10,154 nt of DNA from a virus: the UHGV virus genome UHGV-1550841. One strand, 5' to 3'. Positions 669 through 9,872 of this stretch are shown piece by piece (position 1 is the first letter of the stretch; every line of letters begins with the position of its first letter). A program made the translations under genes and the position numbers. The notes under the pieces are model-generated. The model did not search any database and had not been told where the DNA came from. It was given only the letters and a program-made list of their open reading frames with translations.

Positions 669-1925
669 GTGCTTACCGATACAAAATTAAAAAACCTCAA
701 GCCACAGGACAAACTGTACAAAGTTTCCGATCGTGACGGGCTGTATGTGGCTGTGCTTACGTCAGGCACGGTCTCGTTTCGCTACGACTACCGTATCAAC
801 GGTCGCCGCGAAACGCTGGTAATCGGGCAGTATGGGCGTGACGGTATCAGTCTGGCAGAAGCGCGAGAAGAACTGATTGCTGCAAAGAAGCTGCTTAAAG
901 CAGGCCAGTCACCGGCTGCGGCTAAACGTGACGGTATCAAAAAGATTCGTGGTGCCGAGACGTTTGCGGTACATACCGACAGTTATATGAAACACGTCAT
1001 CCTGGCTGACAGTACCCGCGCAATGAAACAGGCGGTGATCGACCGTGACATACTTCCGGTTCTTGGCAATAAAATGATGGCTGAAATTACCACATCGATG
1101 GTTCGTGATTTGTGTGACCGGATTGTCGAACGCGGTGGCCGGGCAACAGCAGTGCAGGCCAGGGAGATCATCAGCAGCGTATACCGTCACGCCAATGACC
1201 GTGGTCATGGTTTGTTTAATCCTGCGGCTGACATTAAACCTTCGTCTATCGCCATATTTAAACCACGAGAGCGAACACTGACACCAGAAGAAATTGGCCT
1301 GTTCTTCCGCACGCTGGATGCCATTGGTGCTATGGGCACTATGAAAATGGCTTTAAAGCTGGTGCTTATCACTATGGTTCGTAAAGGCGAATTCACCAAC
1401 GCAACGTGGGATGAAATAGATTTTAAAAAATGGACATGGACAATTCCTTCAGACCGCATGAAGGGAAGCCGGGCGCACGTTATTTACCTGCCTAAACAGG
1501 CTCAGGATATATTGGTCGGGTTGCAGATGTGCGCTGGTGGAAGTGAATATCTGGTTCCTGGTCGTTACAATTTCCGGAAGCCATTATCTAATGCCGCGCT
1601 GAACTCTCTGATCGACAGAACGGTGAAAATAATAAATGAAGATGGTGAGCATATTCAGGGCTTCACCGTACACGATATGCGCCGTACAGCCAGTACGTTG
1701 TTGCATGAGGCTGGTTATCCTTCAGACTGGATTGAAAAGGCTCTGGCACATGAGCAGAAAGGTGTGCGCGCCGTATATAACAAAGCGGAATACGCCAGAC
1801 AGCGCGCCTACATGTTGCAGCAGTGGGCCGATATGATTGATTCCTGGATTAACGGGGAGCATACGGATCTGATTCCGTTCTCCCCGTCGAAGTTTGAGAG
1901 GTGGATGGAAGACAGTAATAAATAA
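669..1925 (+). CDS. int: Tyrosine site-specific integrase, P4-type (arm-binding N-terminal domain plus catalytic domain)
   Basis: 418 aa. N-terminus LTDTKLKNLKP...GLYVAV...SFRYDYR fits the P4-type integrase arm-binding domain. C-terminal region has the HxxR motif (VHDMRRTAST) and conserved Tyr region. GTG at 669 is the only start available (in-frame TGA at 663-665); SD is weak. Stop TAA 1923-1925. Confidence 0.9.
   Translation: MLTDTKLKNLKPQDKLYKVSDRDGLYVAVLTSGTVSFRYDYRINGRRETLVIGQYGRDGISLAEAREELIAAKKLLKAGQSPAAAKRDGIKKIRGAETFAVHTDSYMKHVILADSTRAMKQAVIDRDILPVLGNKMMAEITTSMVRDLCDRIVERGGRATAVQAREIISSVYRHANDRGHGLFNPAADIKPSSIAIFKPRERTLTPEEIGLFFRTLDAIGAMGTMKMALKLVLITMVRKGEFTNATWDEIDFKKWTWTIPSDRMKGSRAHVIYLPKQAQDILVGLQMCAGGSEYLVPGRYNFRKPLSNAALNSLIDRTVKIINEDGEHIQGFTVHDMRRTASTLLHEAGYPSDWIEKALAHEQKGVRAVYNKAEYARQRAYMLQQWADMIDSWINGEHTDLIPFSPSKFERWMEDSNK
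838..847 (+). repeat. GTGACGGTAT 10-mer copy 3, inside the integrase coding sequence
   Basis: Exact 10-mer; extended match GTGACGGTATCA shared with the copy at 928. Confidence 0.35.
928..937 (+). repeat. GTGACGGTAT 10-mer copy 4, inside the integrase coding sequence
   Basis: Exact 10-mer; extended 12-mer GTGACGGTATCA identical to the copy at 838. Confidence 0.35.
1181..1190 (-). repeat. GTGACGGTAT 10-mer copy 5 (inverted), inside the integrase coding sequence
   Basis: Plus strand reads ATACCGTCAC. It encodes different amino acids from the other in-gene copies, so the repeat is a DNA-level feature. Confidence 0.35.
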
Positions 1926-1927
1926 TT

Positions 1928-2587
1928 CTATCCTTCCTGGACTTTGGTAAGCGTCAGATTTCCGCAGAACACTGCGCCGGTGTCGATGTACATTTGGTTT
2001 GCATACACCAGTGGGTGATGTGCTGGCGTATGACCGAAGATGAACAAATCGGCACCGGTTATCTCCGAGACAATACCGTCCTGCGCGTCGCTAACCCGCT
2101 CACGATTCCATATCACCATTTCTTCCGGTACTGGCTTATCGAATGCGTATTCGTTGTGCGGGTAGTCTGCGTGGCAGATGACGACCTTCTTATTGCCGGT
2201 AACCAGTTCGATAATCATCGGGAGGTTGGCAACCTTTGGCAGAAGGTATTTGATTTGCACATCCTGCTCAGAATCAAGTTGGTGCCACCATCCACCGCCG
2301 TTTGACATCCAATGTCCGAAACTTCCGCCGTTGACCAGTGCATCCAGCATCATCTGCTCATGGTTGCCACGAACAGCTCGGAACCACGGCATAGTAATCA
2401 AATCCAGGCATTCGACGTTTTCAGCGCCGCGGTCAACAAGGTCACCAACGGAAATAAGTAAATCGCGCGCCGGGTCGAATGAAACTTTGTCGAGTTCGTT
2501 CATCAGCAGCGTGTAGCACCCATGCAGATCGCCGACGACGAAGATATTGCACCAGTCAGCGCCATTGATGCGTTGATATAGGTTCAT
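1928..2587 (-). CDS. Ser/Thr protein phosphatase, PP-lambda-like metallophosphoesterase
   Basis: Translation from ATG 2587 ([12 protein letters not shown]...) shows the three phosphoesterase signature motifs GDLHG, GDLVDRG and GNHE. The longer ORF start at 2707 is rejected because ATG 2587 overlaps the upstream gene stop (ATGA). Confidence 0.85.
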
Positions 2588-3234
2588 GCTGCACGCTCCC
2601 GCCCCTGGTTGTCTATTGGTGACACCGGAGCATTGCTGAATGCATTTGTTAATCCTCCAATATCCAACGCGTATCCAGGGTGTAGTTGCACTGCCGGGTC
2701 TTCGCACTGATTACCCCAAACATCGAAGCCATGAGACGTCTGGCGGGCGAACAGTTCAATGCGAGAAACATCGCCTAACAATTGCACAAGTTTTTCACGA
2801 ACGATATCTGGTTTTCTTGAATGCTCAAGCCGCGGTGCGGTAAATGACTGAACGATCCCTGCATTAATGCGCGTAGGTAGTTTTCCCTTTACCGCAAACA
2901 GGCAATCTTCACTATTGGCGCGAGTCATGTGCCCCATACCCATAACCAGTTTATCTGGTTGTCGACTACCACATTTTATCCACGTGAAGCCCTTCATGGT
3001 CATCAGACGGAATCCCCAGGCTTCAACAACTTTTAGTGCTTCGAGTGGTTGTGTTGGCACCCACCACATGGCCAACAGACAGTTTTCATCGGCCAAATCC
3101 CACACAGGAAGGCGGCAGATATCCAGCACACTCATAACCGGATATTTAAAACCGGCACCGCGATTACCATCTGCGGCTTTGTCCCGGTATACCCAGGGTG
3201 GATCTGCATAGATTAGTGTGTATTTCTTAGTCAT
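2584..3234 (-). CDS. MT-A70 family N6-adenine DNA methyltransferase (DPPW motif), orphan, no adjacent restriction gene
   Basis: Translation [14 protein letters not shown]... carries the DPPW catalytic motif near the N-terminus typical of MT-A70/phage adenine methyltransferases. ATG at 3234 is preceded by a G-rich SD-like sequence; the alternative GTG at 3246 is less likely. Stop overlaps the phosphatase start. Confidence 0.8.
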
Positions 3235-3933: not shown

Positions 3934-4851
3934 TTACATAGATGTTTCGTTTAATTCTTCCCGACGAACGCTGTAAACGTCGGTGGCTTTTGCCAGCAGT
4001 TCGTCATCATCTGAAAGTTTTTGTGCAATGTATTTGTAAGCCTTATCCAGTTCGGAGACAGTGCTGTAATTCATCGCTGCGCTGGTAAAGGCCATCAGCA
4101 TTTCTTCTGGATCACGGCTATCCGCTTTACGCGTTTGCTCATCATGCTTTTTCACTGGTTTAGCGTTGATCAGACTGTTCATGCTGGATGCTGTGCCGTG
4201 CTTTGCCTGACTTCTTGGAGTTACGTCACGTTCAATAATGTCAGGTGAGTCGATATATTTACCTTCCATTTCCTCAGCTGTGGCTTGTTGACCAATCTCC
4301 GGCCATGCTTTACGTAATGCCTGTGCCTCTGCGCATTTTGCCAACTGCGCATAAGGGCGCTTTTTCCACATGGCATTTGGTGCCGATGTGTCACGCCCCC
4401 CAGTTGCATAGTTCTCAATCCAGTATTCTTTGGCGCTAAACTCTACGATTTCCCCGCTTGCCATTCGCTTGCTGACGGTGTACTTACACCACTGAGGGAA
4501 GGTAACCTCCACGCCTGAAAGCGTTTGTGTTACATCTGGACCGAACTCAGGTTCATTAGCGCCTGCGTAATCGCCGGAACGGTAGGCCTGAATGCGATAA
4601 AGTCCAATGCCAGGCATGACCACGTCGCGCCATTCATTCTTTCCACTCTTCGAGTCTTTAACACTCATTGGTACCAGGTGTACCGGCTTAAGAAGAGGAT
4701 CGAGTTGACGCGCCCGGCAGTAATCGACTGCCATCATTACCGATTCATCTTTTGCCCCAGGGTAAATACTGTTTTTCAGAGCGCTCCATGTAACTTCATC
4801 GATTCCCCGAATAGCCAACACATCATTGGTGATTGCAATTTCGTTGCTCAT
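3934..4851 (-). CDS. recT: RecT/Bet-family single-strand annealing recombinase
   Basis: Translation from ATG 4851 (MSNEIAITND...). The region NAMWKKRPYAQLAKCAEAQALRKAWPE resembles the conserved RecT/Bet C-terminal core. ATG overlaps the TGA of the upstream exonuclease gene (ATGA), the classic exo-recT pairing. Confidence 0.8.
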   Translation of the reverse strand: MSNEIAITNDVLAIRGIDEVTWSALKNSIYPGAKDESVMMAVDYCRARQLDPLLKPVHLVPMSVKDSKSGKNEWRDVVMPGIGLYRIQAYRSGDYAGANEPEFGPDVTQTLSGVEVTFPQWCKYTVSKRMASGEIVEFSAKEYWIENYATGGRDTSAPNAMWKKRPYAQLAKCAEAQALRKAWPEIGQQATAEEMEGKYIDSPDIIERDVTPRSQAKHGTASSMNSLINAKPVKKHDEQTRKADSRDPEEMLMAFTSAAMNYSTVSELDKAYKYIAQKLSDDDELLAKATDVYSVRREELNETSM

Positions 4852-5669
4852 ACGTACATATCCTGTTTGCGTGCCCACTCAGGGCGTTTAATAATTTCCA
4901 CGCCGCCCCATTCATCGCTGATGCGGCATTCGTGATAGGTATTCAGATCCCGGCGGAACAGAGCGTGCCCGGCATCGACATCCGGCGCATCCAGCTCGAA
5001 CACGCGTACCGGATACCGACCACAATCAATGCTTTCGCTCACGGCAAGAAAGAAAAAACCATGCGGCTGACCAGTAACCCTCATTGCGCCTTCGCGGTAC
5101 ATTGCGTCCTGCACGTGGTAGCGGAATTCCTCGATGTGACGTGCAAAACGGTCCATATCTGCAACCTTTTTCACGTCGATGATCACGTTGTGCTCGTTCA
5201 GCCATTTGTCTGGACGAATTCGGCACAACTCACCAGTCTCTTCATCGTTCCAGTACATTGATGCTTCGCAGTAACCAGGTGCTTCCAGCATCCAGCGTGC
5301 CGCCGGGTGAGCCATTGCGCTATCACGCATCAGCTCCAGTTTCCGCCACTGCTCGGCATCAAGTACCGCAATCCCCATATCCGCTACATCACGAAGAAAT
5401 GCTTCTTCGTCAGCTTTACCTTGTTTCGTCCGACGATCGAACTTTGGTGAAACAATGAAGCGTTTGTCGAATTCTCCAGGCTCCAGAAGCAGACAGTGCA
5501 ATGCAGTTCCCATATCTAGTGCAGACTTTTTCTCTTCGTCTTCTGGTGCTGCCTGAACCCATTTAAGAAGCGCCGGATTCTTGGCAACCATGTCCAGTTG
5601 CGACTTACTCACGCCGTCACCGGCGTGGTAGTCCTCATTGCTGATGTCGAAATAGATGCCAGTATTCAT
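4848..5669 (-). CDS. RecE-like PD-(D/E)xK exonuclease (partner of RecT)
   Basis: 273 aa. N-terminus FDISNEDYHAGDGVSKSQLDM is typical of RecE-like/PDDEXK exonuclease domains, with an IIDVKK-type motif downstream. Translationally coupled to recT. Confidence 0.75.
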   Translation of the reverse strand: MNTGIYFDISNEDYHAGDGVSKSQLDMVAKNPALLKWVQAAPEDEEKKSALDMGTALHCLLLEPGEFDKRFIVSPKFDRRTKQGKADEEAFLRDVADMGIAVLDAEQWRKLELMRDSAMAHPAARWMLEAPGYCEASMYWNDEETGELCRIRPDKWLNEHNVIIDVKKVADMDRFARHIEEFRYHVQDAMYREGAMRVTGQPHGFFFLAVSESIDCGRYPVRVFELDAPDVDAGHALFRRDLNTYHECRISDEWGGVEIIKRPEWARKQDMYV

Positions 5670-5872
5670 AACTTAACCTTGTATTCGTTCTGCTTGTTGG
5701 AACGGGTTCCATCGTGGAAATATATTGCGCTCCTGGTTACCTCTACCCATTTGCGACGTTCAAGCTCAGCGATGAACCAAGAAACCTTCGATCTTGAGAT
5801 ACCAAGAATCTTTGCCATATCTCGGATGCTGTGTTTTCCACCTCGCAGCAATGAGAGGAGTGTTGGTTTCAT
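5666..5872 (-). CDS. Small helix-turn-helix (winged-helix-like) DNA-binding protein, unknown role
   Basis: 68 aa. HTH-like segment SIRDMAKILGISRSKVSWFIAELERRKWVE. SD GAGGGA 7 nt upstream of ATG 5872. ATGA overlaps with both neighbouring genes. Confidence 0.5.
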   Translation of the reverse strand: MKPTLLSLLRGGKHSIRDMAKILGISRSKVSWFIAELERRKWVEVTRSAIYFHDGTRSNKQNEYKVKL

Positions 5873-6168
5873 GCCGCGTCCCTCTGTCCATCAAGCTGAT
5901 CCGCCAGATCCCAGCGGGCGATAATTACCATTGCCTCTCGCCGATAGGCATCCATCAGTTCTTCGAACTCAGGGCTGTCTTTAGCAGCCTCCAGTACTTC
6001 CTGGCGAACGCCTTTGCCTGTTACAACGTCGAAAGTTGAGGACAGTTGATGAAGTCGGATGCTCTCAATCAGTTCAACTTGTCGGTCATATAGCTGTTCT
6101 GACAGGCGGTAGTCCTTGTCGAATGCCAGCATGATTTTTTGAAGATTTTTCTGCTGATTAACGTCCAT
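5869..6168 (-). CDS. Hypothetical protein (about 99 aa), occupies the position of Gam/Kil-type accessory genes upstream of the recombination genes
   Basis: ATG 6168 has a strong SD (GGAGGG, 6175-6180) and is preferred over ATG 6183. Stop overlaps the start of the HTH gene. No recognisable family. Confidence 0.5.
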   Translation of the reverse strand: MDVNQQKNLQKIMLAFDKDYRLSEQLYDRQVELIESIRLHQLSSTFDVVTGKGVRQEVLEAAKDSPEFEELMDAYRREAMVIIARWDLADQLDGQRDAA

Positions 6169-6170
6169 TA

Positions 6171-6323
6171 TCAGCCCTCCCATATCTCGTTATCGTTGGC
6201 CACATCGCGAGCTTCTTTGCTGACGAAAGCCCACTTAATGCCTTCCTGTAAGGTGCGGAACTTCCAGCTCATGAATCCGCATGCAGTAACGCAGTACCAA
6301 CCGTTGATGATTTTCCACTGCAT
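6171..6323 (-). CDS. Small ORF (50 aa), first gene of the leftward early operon; not N-like
   Basis: Manually translated (below the size cut-off of the ORF track): MQWKIINGWYCVTACGFMSWKFRTLQEGIKWAFVSKEARDVANDNEIWEG. ATG 6323 preceded by GAGGT; stop TGA 6171-6173 sits immediately before the next gene's SD and ATG. Confidence 0.3.
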   Translation of the reverse strand: MQWKIINGWYCVTACGFMSWKFRTLQEGIKWAFVSKEARDVANDNEIWEG

Positions 6324-6342
6324 AACTTGTTACCTCGGTTTG

Positions 6343-6357
6343 TTACCGTTGGGGTAA
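6343..6357. promoter_or_regulatory. Operator OL-proximal: perfect palindrome TTACC-GTTGG-GGTAA
   Basis: Perfect half-sites. Abuts the proposed -10 of the leftward early promoter. Confidence 0.5.
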
Positions 6358-6385
6358 TAATTATGCGTATCTGGTTTGATGTCAA
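6357..6385 (-). promoter_or_regulatory. PL-like sigma70 promoter for the leftward early operon (-35 TTGACA at 6385-6380, 17-bp spacer, -10 AATTAT at 6362-6357)
   Basis: Consensus -35 hexamer read on the minus strand; 17-bp spacer; moderate -10. Bracketed by two operator palindromes. Confidence 0.4.
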
Positions 6386-6404
6386 TAGATATGAGTTAAA
6401 AAAA

Positions 6405-6419
6405 TTACCCGTTAGGTAA
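6405..6419. promoter_or_regulatory. Operator OL-distal: perfect palindrome TTACC-CGTTA-GGTAA
   Basis: Perfect half-sites, 19 bp upstream of the -35 of the PL-like promoter; centre-to-centre 62 bp from the site at 6343-6357. Confidence 0.5.
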
Positions 6420-6430
6420 TCTAACAGGCA

Positions 6431-6455
6431 ATAAAAAAGCCGCCAGAAGGCGGCT
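6431..6455 (-). terminator. Rho-independent terminator downstream of the repressor gene (minus strand)
   Basis: Stem AGCCGCC (6438-6444) / GGCGGCT (6449-6455) with AGAA loop; on the minus strand it is followed by a run of T (plus-strand AAAAAA at 6433-6438). Confidence 0.6.
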
Positions 6456-6476
6456 TACTTACTGAAAAATATGATT

Positions 6477-7061
6477 TTATTGTTTGTTTTTTTCGTTCTG
6501 GTTGATGACAAATTCAATGTAACTTTCGATCTTTGCTTTCTCGGTTTCGGGTAACAATGCGTAGCGCGAGCGGTCATAGTTGATAGTCGCAGGGTCGTGC
6601 GGGTGAATCAGTAGTTCATAGCCGTGACGCCCGAATGCGGATGCAACATTCTCCAGGGTGGAAATGGAAACGCTGACCTCATTGTTTAACAGGCGGCTGA
6701 TTGTCACCTGGGCGACGCCGGATGCGCGGTGAAGTTTTCCCTGTGTTGAAAGGTCGCGGCTTTCGCTCATCCAGCGTTCCAGGTTGTGAGCCGCCAGCTG
6801 ACCTATATCGCTCGGGCCGACAGGCTGAAAACCCTCCTGAGAAAGCGAACGATCAATATCAAGCCAGTTACGGGGTTTATTGGCGGCAGCTTCAATTTTT
6901 CGCGCAACCTGGTCGCCGATAACCTTCTTGCCAAGAGCCCAGCGGTTTACCAGATTTGCCTGAGTTCCAAGTTTTTCTGCCATCCGCGTCTGAACACCAT
7001 TGAATTCACGGTCGATCAAGTCGTTGAGATTTTGCCTGCGGACGTCCTGGATACTTTTCAT
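6477..7061 (-). CDS. Immunity repressor candidate with two tandem HTH (XRE-like) domains and no recognisable LexA/S24-type autocleavage domain
   Basis: 194 aa. N-terminal HTH-like segment (TRMAEKLGTQANLVNRW) and a second HTH-like segment (LHRASGVAQVTISRLLNNEVSVSISTLENVASAFG). Transcribed divergently from the Cro-like gene; flanked by operator palindromes on both sides and followed by a hairpin terminator. Confidence 0.75.
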   Translation of the reverse strand: MKSIQDVRRQNLNDLIDREFNGVQTRMAEKLGTQANLVNRWALGKKVIGDQVARKIEAAANKPRNWLDIDRSLSQEGFQPVGPSDIGQLAAHNLERWMSESRDLSTQGKLHRASGVAQVTISRLLNNEVSVSISTLENVASAFGRHGYELLIHPHDPATINYDRSRYALLPETEKAKIESYIEFVINQNEKNKQ

Positions 7062-7116
7062 TTTCTGGAAAATCGCCTCATATATGAATCAGTAGATGAT
7101 TCAATTTAAAGCAATA

Positions 7117-7131
7117 TTACCCAACAGGTAA
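7117..7131. promoter_or_regulatory. Operator OR site 1: perfect palindrome TTACC-CAACA-GGTAA
   Basis: Perfect half-sites in the divergent repressor / Cro-like intergenic region. Confidence 0.5.
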
Positions 7132-7133
7132 AT

Positions 7134-7148
7134 GCACCTCATAGGTAA
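7134..7148. promoter_or_regulatory. Operator OR site 2 (imperfect): GCACC-TCATA-GGTAA
   Basis: 8/10 match to the half-site consensus, 2 bp from site 1. Confidence 0.3.
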
Positions 7149-7164
7149 CTATCCTTGATTTTTG

Positions 7165-7179
7165 TTACCTTATGGGTGA
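7165..7179. promoter_or_regulatory. Operator OR site 3 (imperfect): TTACC-TTATG-GGTGA
   Basis: 9/10 match; lies between a -35-like TTGATT (7155-7160) and the Cro-like start. Confidence 0.3.
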
Positions 7180-7215
7180 ATATTTATTATCTGAAATAAA
7201 TATCAGGCAATAGCT

Positions 7216-7446
7216 ATGAGCGATAACGGACATTTCGATTTCAAAAAGCACTGGCTTGCACTTACTCCGGATGAGCGTGAAGCCTTCGCACAGGAAGCCG
7301 GAACGACGAGTCACTATATCCAGACTCACTTAACAGGTAAGCGCAAAATGCCAGGTAAAGTATTGATGAATGGGCTTTTTAAAGCCTGTAAAACAAGACA
7401 ATGGTTGCGCTCAAAAGCAGAACTGGCATACTTCTTCTACTCATGA
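7216..7446 (+). CDS. Cro-like (possibly CII-like) small HTH regulator, first gene of the rightward operon
   Basis: 76 aa. HTH-like segment EAFAQEAGTTSHYIQTHLTGKRKMPGKVLMNG. Position directly divergent from the repressor across the operator cluster. Confidence 0.55.
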   Translation: MSDNGHFDFKKHWLALTPDEREAFAQEAGTTSHYIQTHLTGKRKMPGKVLMNGLFKACKTRQWLRSKAELAYFFYS

Positions 7447-7468
7447 TATCCAGCTACACCCCTCTGTA

Positions 7469-7490
7469 GACCGCCACCCGGCGGTCTTTT
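7469..7490 (+). terminator. tR1-like rho-independent terminator after the Cro-like gene
   Basis: Stem GACCGCC (7469-7475) / GGCGGTC (7480-7486), loop ACCC, then TTTT. Confidence 0.5.
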
Positions 7491-7501
7491 CATATCTATT
7501 C

Positions 7502-7516
7502 GCACCTTAAAGGTAA
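7502..7516. promoter_or_regulatory. Operator-like palindrome (imperfect): GCACC-TTAAA-GGTAA, upstream of the replication genes
   Basis: 8/10 match; same TTAAA spacer as the site at 612-626 and same GCACC left half as OR site 2. Confidence 0.3.
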
Positions 7517-7597
7517 TAAAAAACCAAATATGGTTGATCTTTTTTTTGTGTCAGCACAAAATAACCGTAATCCCAATACTAATAACAGGGCTTACCA

Positions 7598-7797
7598 TGG
7601 AAATCATTACACGTATTGATGCCGCAAAGCGCGGACTTAAACGCTACTACACCGGAAAAACATGTAAGCACGGACATGACAGTGAACGCTGGGTTTACAA
7701 TGGACACTGTGTTGAGTGCACCATGGAATCAAACCGTCGTATCAGGGCAGAGATTAAGCAGATCATGATTAATTCCTCCCCACAACATTCAAGCTGA
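7598..7797 (+). CDS. Small Cys/His-rich (putative zinc-binding) protein at the cII position
   Basis: 66 aa from ATG 7598 (MEIITRIDAAKRGLKRYYTGKTCKHGHDSERWVYNGHCVEC...), motif C-x-H-x-H...C-x2-C. The longer ORF in the track starts at TTG 7534 and would run through the operator and terminator region, so the ATG is preferred. Confidence 0.4.
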
Positions 7798-7812: not shown

Positions 7813-8628
7813 ATGAGCAGACATGCAACAGATTGGGCCTGGGAGACAGATCCAGGTAGCTCGTCATTAAAGCTCATACTGCTCTCGATGGCTGACAGAG
7901 CCGATGAATATAACCTCTGCTACCCCAGCATAGAACGCCTCGTTAAAGACACTTGCCTGAATAAAAAAACCGTGCAGGCCGGGCTTATATCGCTCATGAA
8001 AATGGGGCTTATTTCAGATACCGGAGAGAGAAAGGGAGCGACGAAAAGAGTGCGGGTTTTCTCTCTTAATATAACCAAAAACGGGAACATTAAAGGCAAC
8101 CGGGAAGGGGGTAACGAACCCGAAAACGGTAATGTTACCGAAAACGGGAATATACCCAAAAACGGGATGTTGAATGATCCCAAAAACGGGATGTTGAATG
8201 ATCCCAAAAACGGGATCCAGAACCAGTCATATAACCAGTCATTTAACCAAGAGAGGGAGAGCAGGACAAAAAGCGGGGATTCTGTGCCTCATGACCCCGG
8301 AGCAAACAACGCCGTGATGAATAACTTTGTTCCTCCTGGTGGGCCAGGGCAATTAGGCAAATTTGTCATGCATGAACAATGGCAGCCATCAGATGACTTT
8401 CTTCGGAAAAGCTCATTGCAGGGGATCTACCTGGACAGTCTGCCAACGGCACAGGAACTTGCAGAGTTCAGAATTTACTGGATGGCTGAGGGTAAGGCAT
8501 ACCATCAGGCACAGTGGGAGCAGAAGCTGGCAAGGCGGCTGCAGATTAGCAGACAGAAGCAATCAACATTACCTGATAACAACGTTCCGCACTGGAACAG
8601 CCCTGAAGCATGGGAGGATTTCTTGTGA
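7813..8628 (+). CDS. Replication initiator, lambda-O-like in organisation (N-terminal winged-helix, internal iteron-encoded repeat linker, C-terminal domain)
   Basis: 271 aa. GGAG SD 8 nt upstream of ATG 7813. N-terminal HTH-like region (LKLILLSMADRADEYNLCYPSIERLVKDTCLNKKTVQAGLISLMKMGLI). The central part is encoded by direct DNA repeats (iterons). Directly followed by a lambda-P-like gene. Confidence 0.75.
   Translation: MSRHATDWAWETDPGSSSLKLILLSMADRADEYNLCYPSIERLVKDTCLNKKTVQAGLISLMKMGLISDTGERKGATKRVRVFSLNITKNGNIKGNREGGNEPENGNVTENGNIPKNGMLNDPKNGMLNDPKNGIQNQSYNQSFNQERESRTKSGDSVPHDPGANNAVMNNFVPPGGPGQLGKFVMHEQWQPSDDFLRKSSLQGIYLDSLPTAQELAEFRIYWMAEGKAYHQAQWEQKLARRLQISRQKQSTLPDNNVPHWNSPEAWEDFL
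8076..8218. repeat. Origin-type iterons inside the O-like gene: six copies of an AAAACGG(G) core, including a perfect 24-bp tandem repeat
   Basis: Cores start at 8078, 8123, 8141, 8159, 8183 and 8207. CCCAAAAACGGGATGTTGAATGAT occurs at 8155-8178 and 8179-8202, with a partial third copy at 8203-8218. Followed by the direct repeat AACCAGTCAT x2 (8221-8242). Confidence 0.6.
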
Positions 8629-9410
8629 ACAACGTTTTTACCGCGATACAAAACCGTGACGGAGAAGCCCTTTCTCGCATGTCAGGTTATGAGCATCAGT
8701 ACGTCAACAATGACAATGTGGTGAACATGTCAGCAGAGAGGCTTGTTGATGCCCTTTTTAAACAGCTGAAACAACTGTTTCCGGCGGCAGTGGTAACCAA
8801 CCTGAAGACGCCAGAGCAGGAAGTTGCTGCAAAACAGCAGTGGATTGCTGCGTTTGCCGAAGGGGGGATCCGAACCCGTGAACAGGTTTCTGCTGGTATG
8901 CGCCACGCCCGCGCCAGTGAATCTCCGTTCTGGCCGTCTCCAGGGCAATTTATCAAGTGGTGCAAAGACAGCAAGATGGTTCTTGGCGTCACCATTGACG
9001 ATGTGATGGCGGAGTTTCACCGGTACAGCAAGGAAAAAAGTTTATATCCTGGTGGTCCCGAAAGATTCCCGTGGCGACATCCGGTTATGTACTGGGTCGT
9101 ATGTGATACCCGCCGTGCAATGTATCAGCGCCAGCTTAGCGAGATTGAGGTTGAGAAACACGCACGCAGGCTGCTCGATGATTGGGCGAAAAAGGTGGCT
9201 TCCGGACAGCAGATACCCGATCCGGTGATCAGCATACAGGCAAAGCCAGAGCCCATGAGTACGCCTCCGGACACAGGGAGAGACGTTTACCATCCACCAG
9301 GGCGAAGTTTCGGGTGCATGCCTAACGCCGCCACCCTTGGGGGAATAACACCGGCGCAGTGGCTGATGGAGGAATACAGGCGGGGAAAGGCGGCAGGATT
9401 TATCAAGTAA
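8625..9410 (+). CDS. Lambda-P-like replication protein (helicase loader)
   Basis: Translation aligns by eye with lambda P as I recall it (FPA...QW.AAF.E.GI.T.EQV.AGMR.AR....PF.PSPGQF..WC, and LYP....PW...YW). GTG 8625 has a GGGAGGA SD at 8612-8618 and overlaps the O-like stop; ATG 8610 is an alternative start. Confidence 0.8.
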   Translation: MNNVFTAIQNRDGEALSRMSGYEHQYVNNDNVVNMSAERLVDALFKQLKQLFPAAVVTNLKTPEQEVAAKQQWIAAFAEGGIRTREQVSAGMRHARASESPFWPSPGQFIKWCKDSKMVLGVTIDDVMAEFHRYSKEKSLYPGGPERFPWRHPVMYWVVCDTRRAMYQRQLSEIEVEKHARRLLDDWAKKVASGQQIPDPVISIQAKPEPMSTPPDTGRDVYHPPGRSFGCMPNAATLGGITPAQWLMEEYRRGKAAGFIK

Positions 9411-9447: not shown

Positions 9448-9462
9448 TTACCTATCAGGTAA
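9448..9462. promoter_or_regulatory. Operator: perfect palindrome TTACC-TATCA-GGTAA
   Basis: Perfect half-sites, 19 bp upstream of a -35-like TTGATT. Confidence 0.5.
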
Positions 9463-9481: not shown

Positions 9482-9510
9482 TTGATTTCGTGTCTTATGT
9501 GGTTTTTAAT
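9482..9510 (+). promoter_or_regulatory. Sigma70-like promoter (-35 TTGATT at 9482-9487, 17-bp spacer, -10 TTTAAT at 9505-9510) bracketed by two operators
   Basis: Hexamers and spacing read directly; geometry relative to the flanking palindromes is identical to the PL-like promoter. Confidence 0.4.
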
Positions 9511-9524
9511 TACCTTAGAGGTAA
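9510..9524. promoter_or_regulatory. Operator: perfect palindrome TTACC-TTAGA-GGTAA overlapping the -10, start region and SD of the DUF1064-like gene
   Basis: Perfect half-sites; centre-to-centre 62 bp from the site at 9448-9462. Confidence 0.5.
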
Positions 9525-9527
9525 ATC

Positions 9528-9872
9528 ATGAGAAAACAGATACAGGCTCTTGGTCGACTCAAAACAGGCCAGATGAACAAAACAGAATCTGCGTATTGCC
9601 AGCACCTTGAGCAGCGTAAACGTGCAGGGGAAATCGCCTGGTATCGATTCGAGGGTATCAAGTTGCGGTTAGCTGACAACACGTTCTATACGCCCGATTT
9701 TGCTGTGATGCTCGCCACCGGCGAGATGGAACTGCACGAAGTGAAAGGTTTCTGGACCGACGACGCCAGGGTGAAAACCAAAGTCGCCGCAGATCAGTAT
9801 CCGTTCCGAATCATCGGGGTAACGGTTAAGCCAAAGAAAGCAGGTGGTGGCTGGAACATCGAAGAGTTCTGA
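9528..9872 (+). CDS. DUF1064-like phage protein (small, possibly nuclease-fold)
   Basis: 114 aa. Pattern KTESAY..HLEQRKRAGEI..YRFEGIKLRLADNTFYTPDF...HEVKGFWT resembles what I recall of the DUF1064 prophage family. AGAGGT SD 5 nt upstream of ATG. Confidence 0.5.
   Translation: MRKQIQALGRLKTGQMNKTESAYCQHLEQRKRAGEIAWYRFEGIKLRLADNTFYTPDFAVMLATGEMELHEVKGFWTDDARVKTKVAADQYPFRIIGVTVKPKKAGGGWNIEEF

Follow-up and report, generated by a model that had tools for sequence, protein, structure and literature searches.

The deoxyribonucleic acid (DNA) considered here, a stretch of 10,154 bp from the virus genome UHGV-1550841 (hereafter "the window"), belongs to a Uetakevirus, a phiV10/epsilon15-like temperate podophage of Escherichia coli. 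Our subject is the trio of small genes that opens its leftward early operon, whose products of 50, 99 and 68 amino acids (aa) are called p50, p99 and p68. The original prediction, made from the letters alone, placed these genes first after a PL-like promoter and regarded them as an unknown trio standing in place of N and the Kil/Gam-type genes. The three open reading frames (ORFs) were confirmed; RefSeq annotates the same three in near-identical guaA prophages, and the DNA of this region is 97-99% identical to that of phiV10-type phages and E. coli prophages at guaA. The genes and the control elements ahead of them are as follows.

6171-6323, minus strand: p50, 50 aa with five Trp and two Cys, pI 6.1; phrog_898; phiV10 p39 and epsilon15 gp37
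5869-6168, minus strand: p99, 99 aa, net charge -7, pI 4.6; phrog_856; phiV10 p38 and epsilon15 gp36
5666-5872, minus strand: p68, 68 aa, pI 10.5, helix-turn-helix (HTH); by Pfam a winged-helix (MarR/ArsR-like) DNA-binding protein
6343-6357: perfect operator palindrome TTACC-N5-GGTAA, adjoining the -10 hexamer, sharing its last base and covering the probable PL start region
6357-6385, minus strand: PL-type early-left promoter TTGACA-17-AATTAT, 10/12 consensus positions, like the epsilon15 promoter layout
6405-6419: perfect operator palindrome TTACC-N5-GGTAA, upstream of the -35 hexamer
6437-6456, minus strand: intrinsic terminator of the repressor transcript (8-bp stem with 6 GC pairs, T run); the phiV10 annotation has a terminator at the same place
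6477-7061, minus strand: prophage repressor, 194 aa, two HTH_3-type motifs (Pfam HTH_3, 1.2e-9); homologue of phiV10 p40 and epsilon15 gp38, both annotated as repressor

The trio consists of real, translationally coupled genes: p50 and p99 are separated by 2 nt, with a GGAGGG Shine-Dalgarno sequence ahead of the p99 ATG, and ATGA overlaps join p99 to p68 and p68 to the exonuclease gene that follows. The promoter at 6385-6357 is the top sigma-70 match within 5400-7600, and a scan for the TTACC-N5-GGTAA pattern gave 14 matches where 3.3 were expected. The same 17-bp motif (ATTACCAAAATGGTAAT) is annotated as repressor binding sites around the equivalent promoter in the curated epsilon15 record. 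In the near-identical phage ZX5, whose repressor is identical, over-expressed repressor blocks lytic growth (PMC9782041). Because repressor-type operators flank the promoter and match the epsilon15 sites, and because the ZX5 repressor blocks lysis, "PL-like promoter" is a fair description, and the trio does lie first after it.

Both p50 and p99 are listed as "hypothetical protein" in RefSeq and GenBank; neither has a match in Pfam, NCBIfam or PADLOC, and PHROGs 898 and 856 are of unknown function. In the curated epsilon15 record gp36 and gp37 are still hypothetical although the annotators used HHpred on other genes. Homologues of the two proteins are confined to phages and prophages of Enterobacteriaceae of the phiV10/epsilon15 type.

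The second gene, p99, and the Gam proteins

Because p99 lies directly upstream of genes for an exonuclease and an annealase, it was tested for a function of the Gam or Abc2 type. In the window, where p99 holds the same slot apart from the p68 insert before the exonuclease, these two genes are as follows.

4848-5669, minus strand: RecE-like PD-(D/E)XK exonuclease (DUF3799), Pfam PF12684 1.4e-21; ATGA overlap with p68
3934-4851, minus strand: RecT single-strand annealing protein, Pfam RecT 1.1e-28

The arrangement was followed through 125 related loci, made up of 120 IMG/VR contigs, collected with a degenerate pattern, and reference loci. An exonuclease gene directly follows p99 in 114 of the 125, the other loci being truncated; 87 loci have the RecE-like DUF3799 type and 27 the unrelated YqaJ type (4-bp overlap).

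The p99 family is narrow. A search of 1.84 billion representative proteins with a p99 hidden Markov model (HMM) found only 32 relatives, all from the same small family and about ten of them full-length, the latter reaching down to 29% identity. A diversified family alignment, A4, was built with 16 sequences down to that same 29%. When its profile was compared by hmmsearch with 25 early-left proteins of lambda, P22 and Rac, Gam ranked first with a co-linear match of 14.1 bits (E 5.8e-5), a score that a single one of 20,000 Gam shuffles reached against the p99 profile. With hhalign, A4 matched a 94-sequence Gam alignment at 81.6% (E 1.1e-5, score 33.7), residues 32-86 of p99 pairing with 34-90 of GamS. 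With looser settings the match spans residues 17-96 and includes a common C-terminal IDS motif (55-78 aligned columns). The controls for the real score of 33.7 are listed below.

300 column shuffles: mean 11.4, standard deviation (sd) 2.4, maximum 25.0
Reversed alignment: 18.6
120 block shuffles, 7-column blocks: mean 14.6, sd 2.9, maximum 22.9
120 block shuffles, 11-column blocks: mean 17.2, sd 3.8, maximum 30.9

In other words, none of the 540 shuffled controls attained the real score (0/300 by column, 0/240 by block).

Four library-wide searches led to the same family: (i) among 24,736 Pfam models queried with each A4 member, the lowest E was that of PF06064 Gam (0.0042, with the member P0087, which also scores 21.9 bits against the Gam HMM built in this analysis); (ii) among 177,635 PDB sequences queried with the A4 profile, the best non-repeat matches were the Gam chains 5mbv_A and 2uuz_A (E 0.07); (iii) among 38,880 PHROGs families queried with P0087, the second match after its own family was phrog_259, "gam-like host nuclease inhibitor" (E 0.016); and (iv) in a six-frame tblastn search of 2.3 Gb of phage records with P0087, annotated Gam genes were the only matches outside the family. 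The nominal top PDB matches to A4 were designer pentatricopeptide (PPR) repeats, which were discounted as sums of 3-bit repeat matches.

The strength of the signal can be judged against a known case. Lambda Gam and phi80 GamL are different sequence types with a similar predicted fold (PMC12315714), and their link amounts to 14.7-14.8 bits, comparable to that between p99 and Gam. The two proteins also agree in gross properties: p99 and GamS have 99 and 98 aa, net charges of -7 and -10, and pI values of 4.6 and 5.0. For p99 the prediction gives one long helix at the N-terminus and shorter ones towards the C-terminus; GamS is described as a dimer whose long helical extensions are N-terminal and whose acidic surface mimics DNA (PMC5218532). 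No similarity to Abc2, Abc1, RacC or Arf appeared in the sequence and profile tests.

Judged from these comparisons, p99 is quite probably a Gam homologue, albeit a very divergent one, and we hold with somewhat less confidence that it inhibits RecBCD in the lambda manner. Homology and position are what the data address directly; that p99 would bind and inhibit a RecBCD-type nuclease we infer from them. The original prediction, in which the trio stood in place of a Gam-type gene, is thus turned round, since profile-profile comparison and context make p99 itself the probable, divergent Gam. The protein falls below every curated threshold, and therefore the databases call it hypothetical.

Gene order in relatives provides a second line of evidence. 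An inserted gene, about 1 kb long, separates p50 from p99 in 18 loci (for example L040:465-1499). It encodes a coiled-coil protein of 344-366 aa (phrog_1376, unknown function, no Pfam match) that is a homologue of phi80 Mog, also called Agt. In L076 (5400-6500), a contig with a more distant, phi80-like early region, the Mog homologue stands ahead of a p99 homologue and p50 is absent. Identity to phi80 Agt/Mog is 58% in L040 (E 2e-94) and 50% in L076 (E 2.5e-75), and altogether a Mog homologue lies directly upstream of p99 in 18-20 of the 125 loci (about 16%). For the functions of Mog and GamL we relied on the notes of GenBank records (JX871397 PHI80_39 and PHI80_40; phrog_1050). There Agt/Mog, directly upstream of gamL, is described as "modifier of Gam / anti-toxin for Gam", and gamL as "host RecBCD/SbcCD enzymes inhibitor; toxic without Mog"; recT and exo come next. 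Because the Mog homologue adjoins p99 as Mog adjoins gamL in phi80, the place behind Mog that gamL fills there is taken by p99.

Among 79 Mog-bearing phi80-like contigs, GamL is next in 49. In about 24 of the 79 (L225, L226, L247 and about 21 others) a different protein of 65 aa, MNITCECVDMRTSVGPHNTIKVEMEGVV...HQERAA, takes the place of GamL; at that position none of the models searched with (lambda Gam, GamL, p99) picked it up, and it might be a further anti-nuclease type.

Several observations weigh against the assignment of p99 to Gam. Since the 65-aa protein also follows Mog, adjacency to Mog is supportive, not diagnostic. The p99 of the window matches no Pfam family at E <= 1 and reaches only 8.5 bits against the lambda Gam HMM; it and phiV10 p38 are nevertheless the top two of 658 six-frame ORFs from phiV10, epsilon15 and the window. 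P0087 alone attains E 0.0042 with PF06064, below the gathering threshold, so that the link rests on profiles and on intermediates such as P0087. The alignment has its core in the C-terminal two thirds, and the N-terminal helix of p99 is not detectably similar to that of Gam, which in lambda enters and plugs the single-stranded DNA channel of RecB (PMC5218532). Between p99 and phi80 GamL there is no similarity (E 0.14). A literature search with the accessions and PHROG ids of the trio found no citing paper.

Chi sites (GCTGGTGG) add to this side of the balance. In surveys, phages with Gam or Abc2 avoid Chi and inhibitor-less phages enrich it (PMC3784561, PMC12315714). The phiV10 genome (L220) holds 8 Chi where 2.7 +/- 1.7 are expected, a number reached in none of 150 simulations, and epsilon15 (L221) holds 6 where 2.9 +/- 1.7 are expected; all 14 are co-oriented on the plus strand. 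The window itself has one, at 1533, within the integrase gene. The trend is not absolute, because a 10-kb part of phi80, which has GamL, contains 2 Chi. As possible readings of the excess, p99 may block RecBCD incompletely, the trend may fail in this group, or codon usage and gene orientation may bias the count.

On a bolder reading the plug helix has diverged, Mog is optional, and Chi is over-represented and co-oriented, and p99 may therefore have another target or modulate RecBCD. In its strongest form, p99 would be a third, unrecognised sequence type of the Gam fold that is directed at SbcCD or a defence nuclease, or that only modulates RecBCD so that Chi protection persists, with p50 as a new early host-directed effector beside it. 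We think this unlikely as a whole. Whatever its target, p99 is widespread in enterobacterial prophages, occurring in about 10% of complete E. coli genomes.

It is also possible, if quite unlikely, that p99 is unrelated to Gam and is a helical or coiled-coil accessory of the exonuclease and RecT, an adaptor or chaperone with a role like that of P22 Arf or Abc1, the match reflecting convergent helical and acidic composition. The weak direct score of the window protein and its lack of a Pfam match would fit, as would the Chi enrichment, which resembles that of inhibitor-less phages. Fold searches for p99 gave no Gam match, Gam matches the strongly conserved C-terminal WDLADQIDSAR-AA motif only in part, and an earlier hhalign run with the shallow alignment A1 against single-sequence Gam gave a non-co-linear match at 11.8%, since superseded by A4. 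On the other hand, controls that preserve composition and periodicity never reached the real score, and four independent library-wide searches singled out Gam among tens of thousands of families. The two proteins also have equal length and an equal gene slot, a Mog homologue adjoins p99, and p99 shows no likeness to Arf, Abc1, Abc2 or RacC. We keep to p99 as a probable Gam homologue.

The first and third genes, p50 and p68

Across 47 distinct DNA versions residues 1-25 of p50 are invariant, while codons 2, 6, 8, 13, 14, 16, 24 and 25 vary synonymously. Because the residues stay fixed despite this variation, p50 is a real gene under protein-level purifying selection. It has an invariant NGWYCVTACG core, matches phrog_898 at 1.9e-38, and in the phiV10/epsilon15 group is always the first gene after PL, with p99 directly next in 79 of 79 additional loci. 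No relatives were detectable outside that phage group, and no convincing Pfam model match was obtained with the family members. The AlphaFold2 (AF2) model has a predicted local distance difference test (pLDDT) value of 54 and no confident fold.

Several known small proteins were tried as relatives. By eye p50 shares the patterns MQ[YW]xIxGW and RxL[RQ][DE]G with cIII; given no BLASTP match, an hhalign value of 0.5% and a shuffle P of 0.31, cIII was rejected. Lambda Kil was set aside with a shuffle P of 0.35 and no BLASTP match, and KilR, P22 Kil, YdaF, YdaG, phi80 Kil and gp44 fell in the same tests. Nor is p50 a substitute for Mog, because the two co-occur in the insertion variants.

The role that p50 might play can be approached by analogy. 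Its size of 50 aa and its place directly upstream of a Gam-type gene mirror the lambda order cIII-kil-gam, and it is under strong protein-level constraint, so that it could be a non-homologous analogue of a Kil-type FtsZ inhibitor or a cIII-type FtsH inhibitor, expressed first after derepression. Comparison with lambda cIII, P22 C3, lambda Kil, P22 Kil, KilR and phi80 Kil speaks against this (no BLASTP match, hhalign 0.5%, HMM E 0.7-3, shuffle P 0.3-0.95), as does the low confidence of the structural model. The Kil proteins of lambda, P22 and Rac are, for their part, mutually unrelated in sequence, and missing homology is therefore not decisive. This analogy, which concerns p50 only, is conceivable but doubtful, and to call p50 a small host-directed effector of the Kil/cIII kind is a guess.

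The third gene is of another nature. Residues 5-50 of p68 match HTH_24, MarR_2, ArsR and Csa3-type winged-helix (wHTH) models, and in Pfam HTH_24 gives 26.1 bits (cut-off 21.9) and MarR_2 27.1 bits (cut-off 27). Its best PDB sequence matches are partial wHTH domains (E 4e-4 to 0.2). A complete MarR protein has about 140-150 aa and dimerisation helices at both termini; p68, with 68 aa that cover profile positions 11-56 of 61, does not have this architecture.

As an optional winged-helix insertion, the gene does not belong to the conserved set of the operon. Neither phiV10 nor most relatives have it; it occurs in 12 of the 125 viral loci and in 34 of 5426 complete E. coli genomes, against 561 that carry the region (about 6%), always as an insertion between p99 and the exonuclease gene. 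Homologues of 52-81% identity occur in unrelated phages. Saltrevirus sal3 has such a homologue flanked by a ParB-like gene and RusA, and Cronobacter phage ENT47670 has one of 52% identity to p68, an ORF without annotation (L137:3501-3695), with RecT on one side and the exonuclease on the other. Going by sequence and distribution, the best description of p68 is a putative mobile gene for an accessory DNA-binding protein, one that inserts into modules of DNA metabolism.

The original prediction had offered all three genes as candidates for undescribed host-interaction functions. Only p50 keeps that standing, since p99 is a probable Gam and p68 an optional wHTH insert. At the same time the searches did not place all three proteins in well-characterised families: p99 has a remote relation to Gam, p68 is a generic wHTH, and p50 has no family at all.

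Flanking genes and transcription signals

The rest of the window was laid out from the list of ORFs and from annotated relatives.

Start of the window: end of the Rz spanin gene
669-1925, plus strand: integrase
1928-2590, minus strand: calcineurin-like metallophosphatase (Pfam Metallophos 1.1e-15; GDLHG/GDLVDRG/GNHE motifs)
Between metallophosphatase and RecT, minus strand: MT-A70 methylase, PerC-like and AlpA-like genes
7216-7446, rightward: cro-like gene
Rightward: small zinc-ribbon gene and DnaT-like replication gene
8610-9410, rightward: lambda-P-like replication gene
9528-9872, rightward: DUF1064 gene

The probable ATG of recT is at 4851 and overlaps the exonuclease stop; the longest ORF begins at 4878. 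Exonuclease and RecT (3934-5669) are two genes with an ATGA overlap in the window, as in the RefSeq prophages. In phiV10, p37 (L001:1810-3570) is annotated as one RecE-RecT fusion. Among relatives p50-p99 stays in place, while the exonuclease may be of the DUF3799 or the YqaJ type and RecT alleles are swapped (about 28-40% identity). Next to the integrase gene, phiV10 has a DUF1382 gene and the window the metallophosphatase gene of 1928-2590, whose product resembles a lambda-type Ser/Thr phosphatase and is apparently carried as a moron.

Two more perfect TTACC-N5-GGTAA palindromes lie at 9448-9462 and 9510-9524, between the lambda-P-like gene and the DUF1064 gene. A repressor site is likewise marked downstream of the replication gene in the epsilon15 record, and the palindromes suggest a third repressor-controlled site or promoter.

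The original prediction that none of the trio resembles lambda N was borne out: there is no arginine-rich motif, HMM comparison with lambda N and P22 gp24 gave E > 2, and Rfam has no match in the window. From 6400 to 1900 the minus strand has no predicted intrinsic terminator. There is, in short, no N-type antiterminator here and no predicted leftward terminator that would require one. On the right arm a strong intrinsic terminator at 7468-7487 (plus strand), annotated in phiV10 too, directly follows the cro-like gene and precedes the replication genes, and neither the Rfam scan of the window nor the HMM comparison revealed N or an element of the nut or put kind. These findings, and a position first after PL like that of N, are what could be said for p50 or p99 as a functional replacement of N, a non-arginine-rich antiterminator for full early transcription, but the idea is most improbable, given that the leftward operon has no predicted terminator to overcome, that no arginine-rich motif or RNA-binding signature is present and p99 is better explained as Gam-type, that phages with an N of their own, in L076 and phi80-type contexts, carry p99 and lack p50, and that p50 appears too small and hydrophobic for known antiterminators.

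A putative operon model and its known counterparts

Taken together, the evidence points to a PL-operon trio in which p99 is of the Gam type, p68 is an accessory wHTH protein and p50 is an orphan; we put the probability of this whole model at roughly 0.7. When the repressor leaves its TTACC-N5-GGTAA operators, a single transcript would be made, from which p50, p99, p68, the RecE-like exonuclease and RecT would be produced by translational coupling. p99 would protect linear and rolling-circle phage DNA and leave end-processing to the phage exonuclease/RecT pair. p68 would act as a stand-alone winged-helix DNA-binding protein, inserted with coupling on both sides in a minority of operons, and p50 would contribute a strongly conserved small protein specific to the phiV10/epsilon15 group. 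What is probably new is an unrecognised Gam sequence type, accompanied by Mog in some relatives and found in Chi-rich phages, together with the conserved orphan p50. In its other features the operon follows a conventional design, with no sign of a new kind of system.

Inhibitors of RecBCD are small proteins that evolve quickly. Surveys have sorted phages into inhibitor-plus and inhibitor-minus classes from Pfam matches to Gam and Abc2 (PMC3784561) or from four known types (PMC12315714). If the model is true, a hidden Gam moves the common phiV10/epsilon15 prophage group to the inhibitor-plus class, as an exception to the rule of Chi avoidance. Gam-type proteins also trigger or inhibit bacterial defence systems such as Gabija, Kiwa and OLD, and a divergent variant would be a useful probe of what these systems recognise. 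The compact and strongly constrained orphan p50, expressed first after derepression, would make a cheap subject for a toxicity test.

Among known systems, lambda Gam itself (GamS; PF06064; PDB 2UUZ and 5MBV), a dimeric DNA-mimic inhibitor of RecBCD and SbcCD, stands nearest. Both it and p99 are acidic proteins of about 98-99 aa, all-helical with a long N-terminal helix (in p99 by prediction), encoded in a PL operon immediately upstream of an exonuclease and an annealase, and they are co-linear over the C-terminal two thirds, including the motifs VEFQE/EFEE, IA-H/IA-W and IDS. They differ in that identity is only about 20% and in that p99 has its own invariant C-terminal WDLADQIDSAR motif.

The GamL-Mog pair of phi80/Lula offers the same mog-gam-Rec gene order. 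Close relatives of the window carry the 58% Mog homologue upstream of a p99 about 95% identical to that of the window, and GamL, like p99, forms a sequence type of its own with only a weak link to lambda Gam; the differences are that p99 and GamL lack direct similarity and that the window has no Mog gene.

P22 Abc2, Abc1 and Arf resemble p99 as small recombination-module proteins of a temperate enterobacterial phage and differ from it in sequence and profile; Abc2, moreover, modifies RecBCD via RecC and not by blocking the DNA site (PMC9836394). The small PL-proximal proteins lambda N, cIII and Kil and Rac YdaF, YdaG, KilR and RacC occupy positions like that of p50, with no similarity to p50 or p99 by BLASTP, HMM, hhalign or shuffle. 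Finally, p68 shares a helix-turn-helix plus wing with the MarR/ArsR regulators; compared with true MarR proteins it is without dimerisation helices and ligand pocket, and it occurs as an optional insert in recombination and DNA-metabolism modules.

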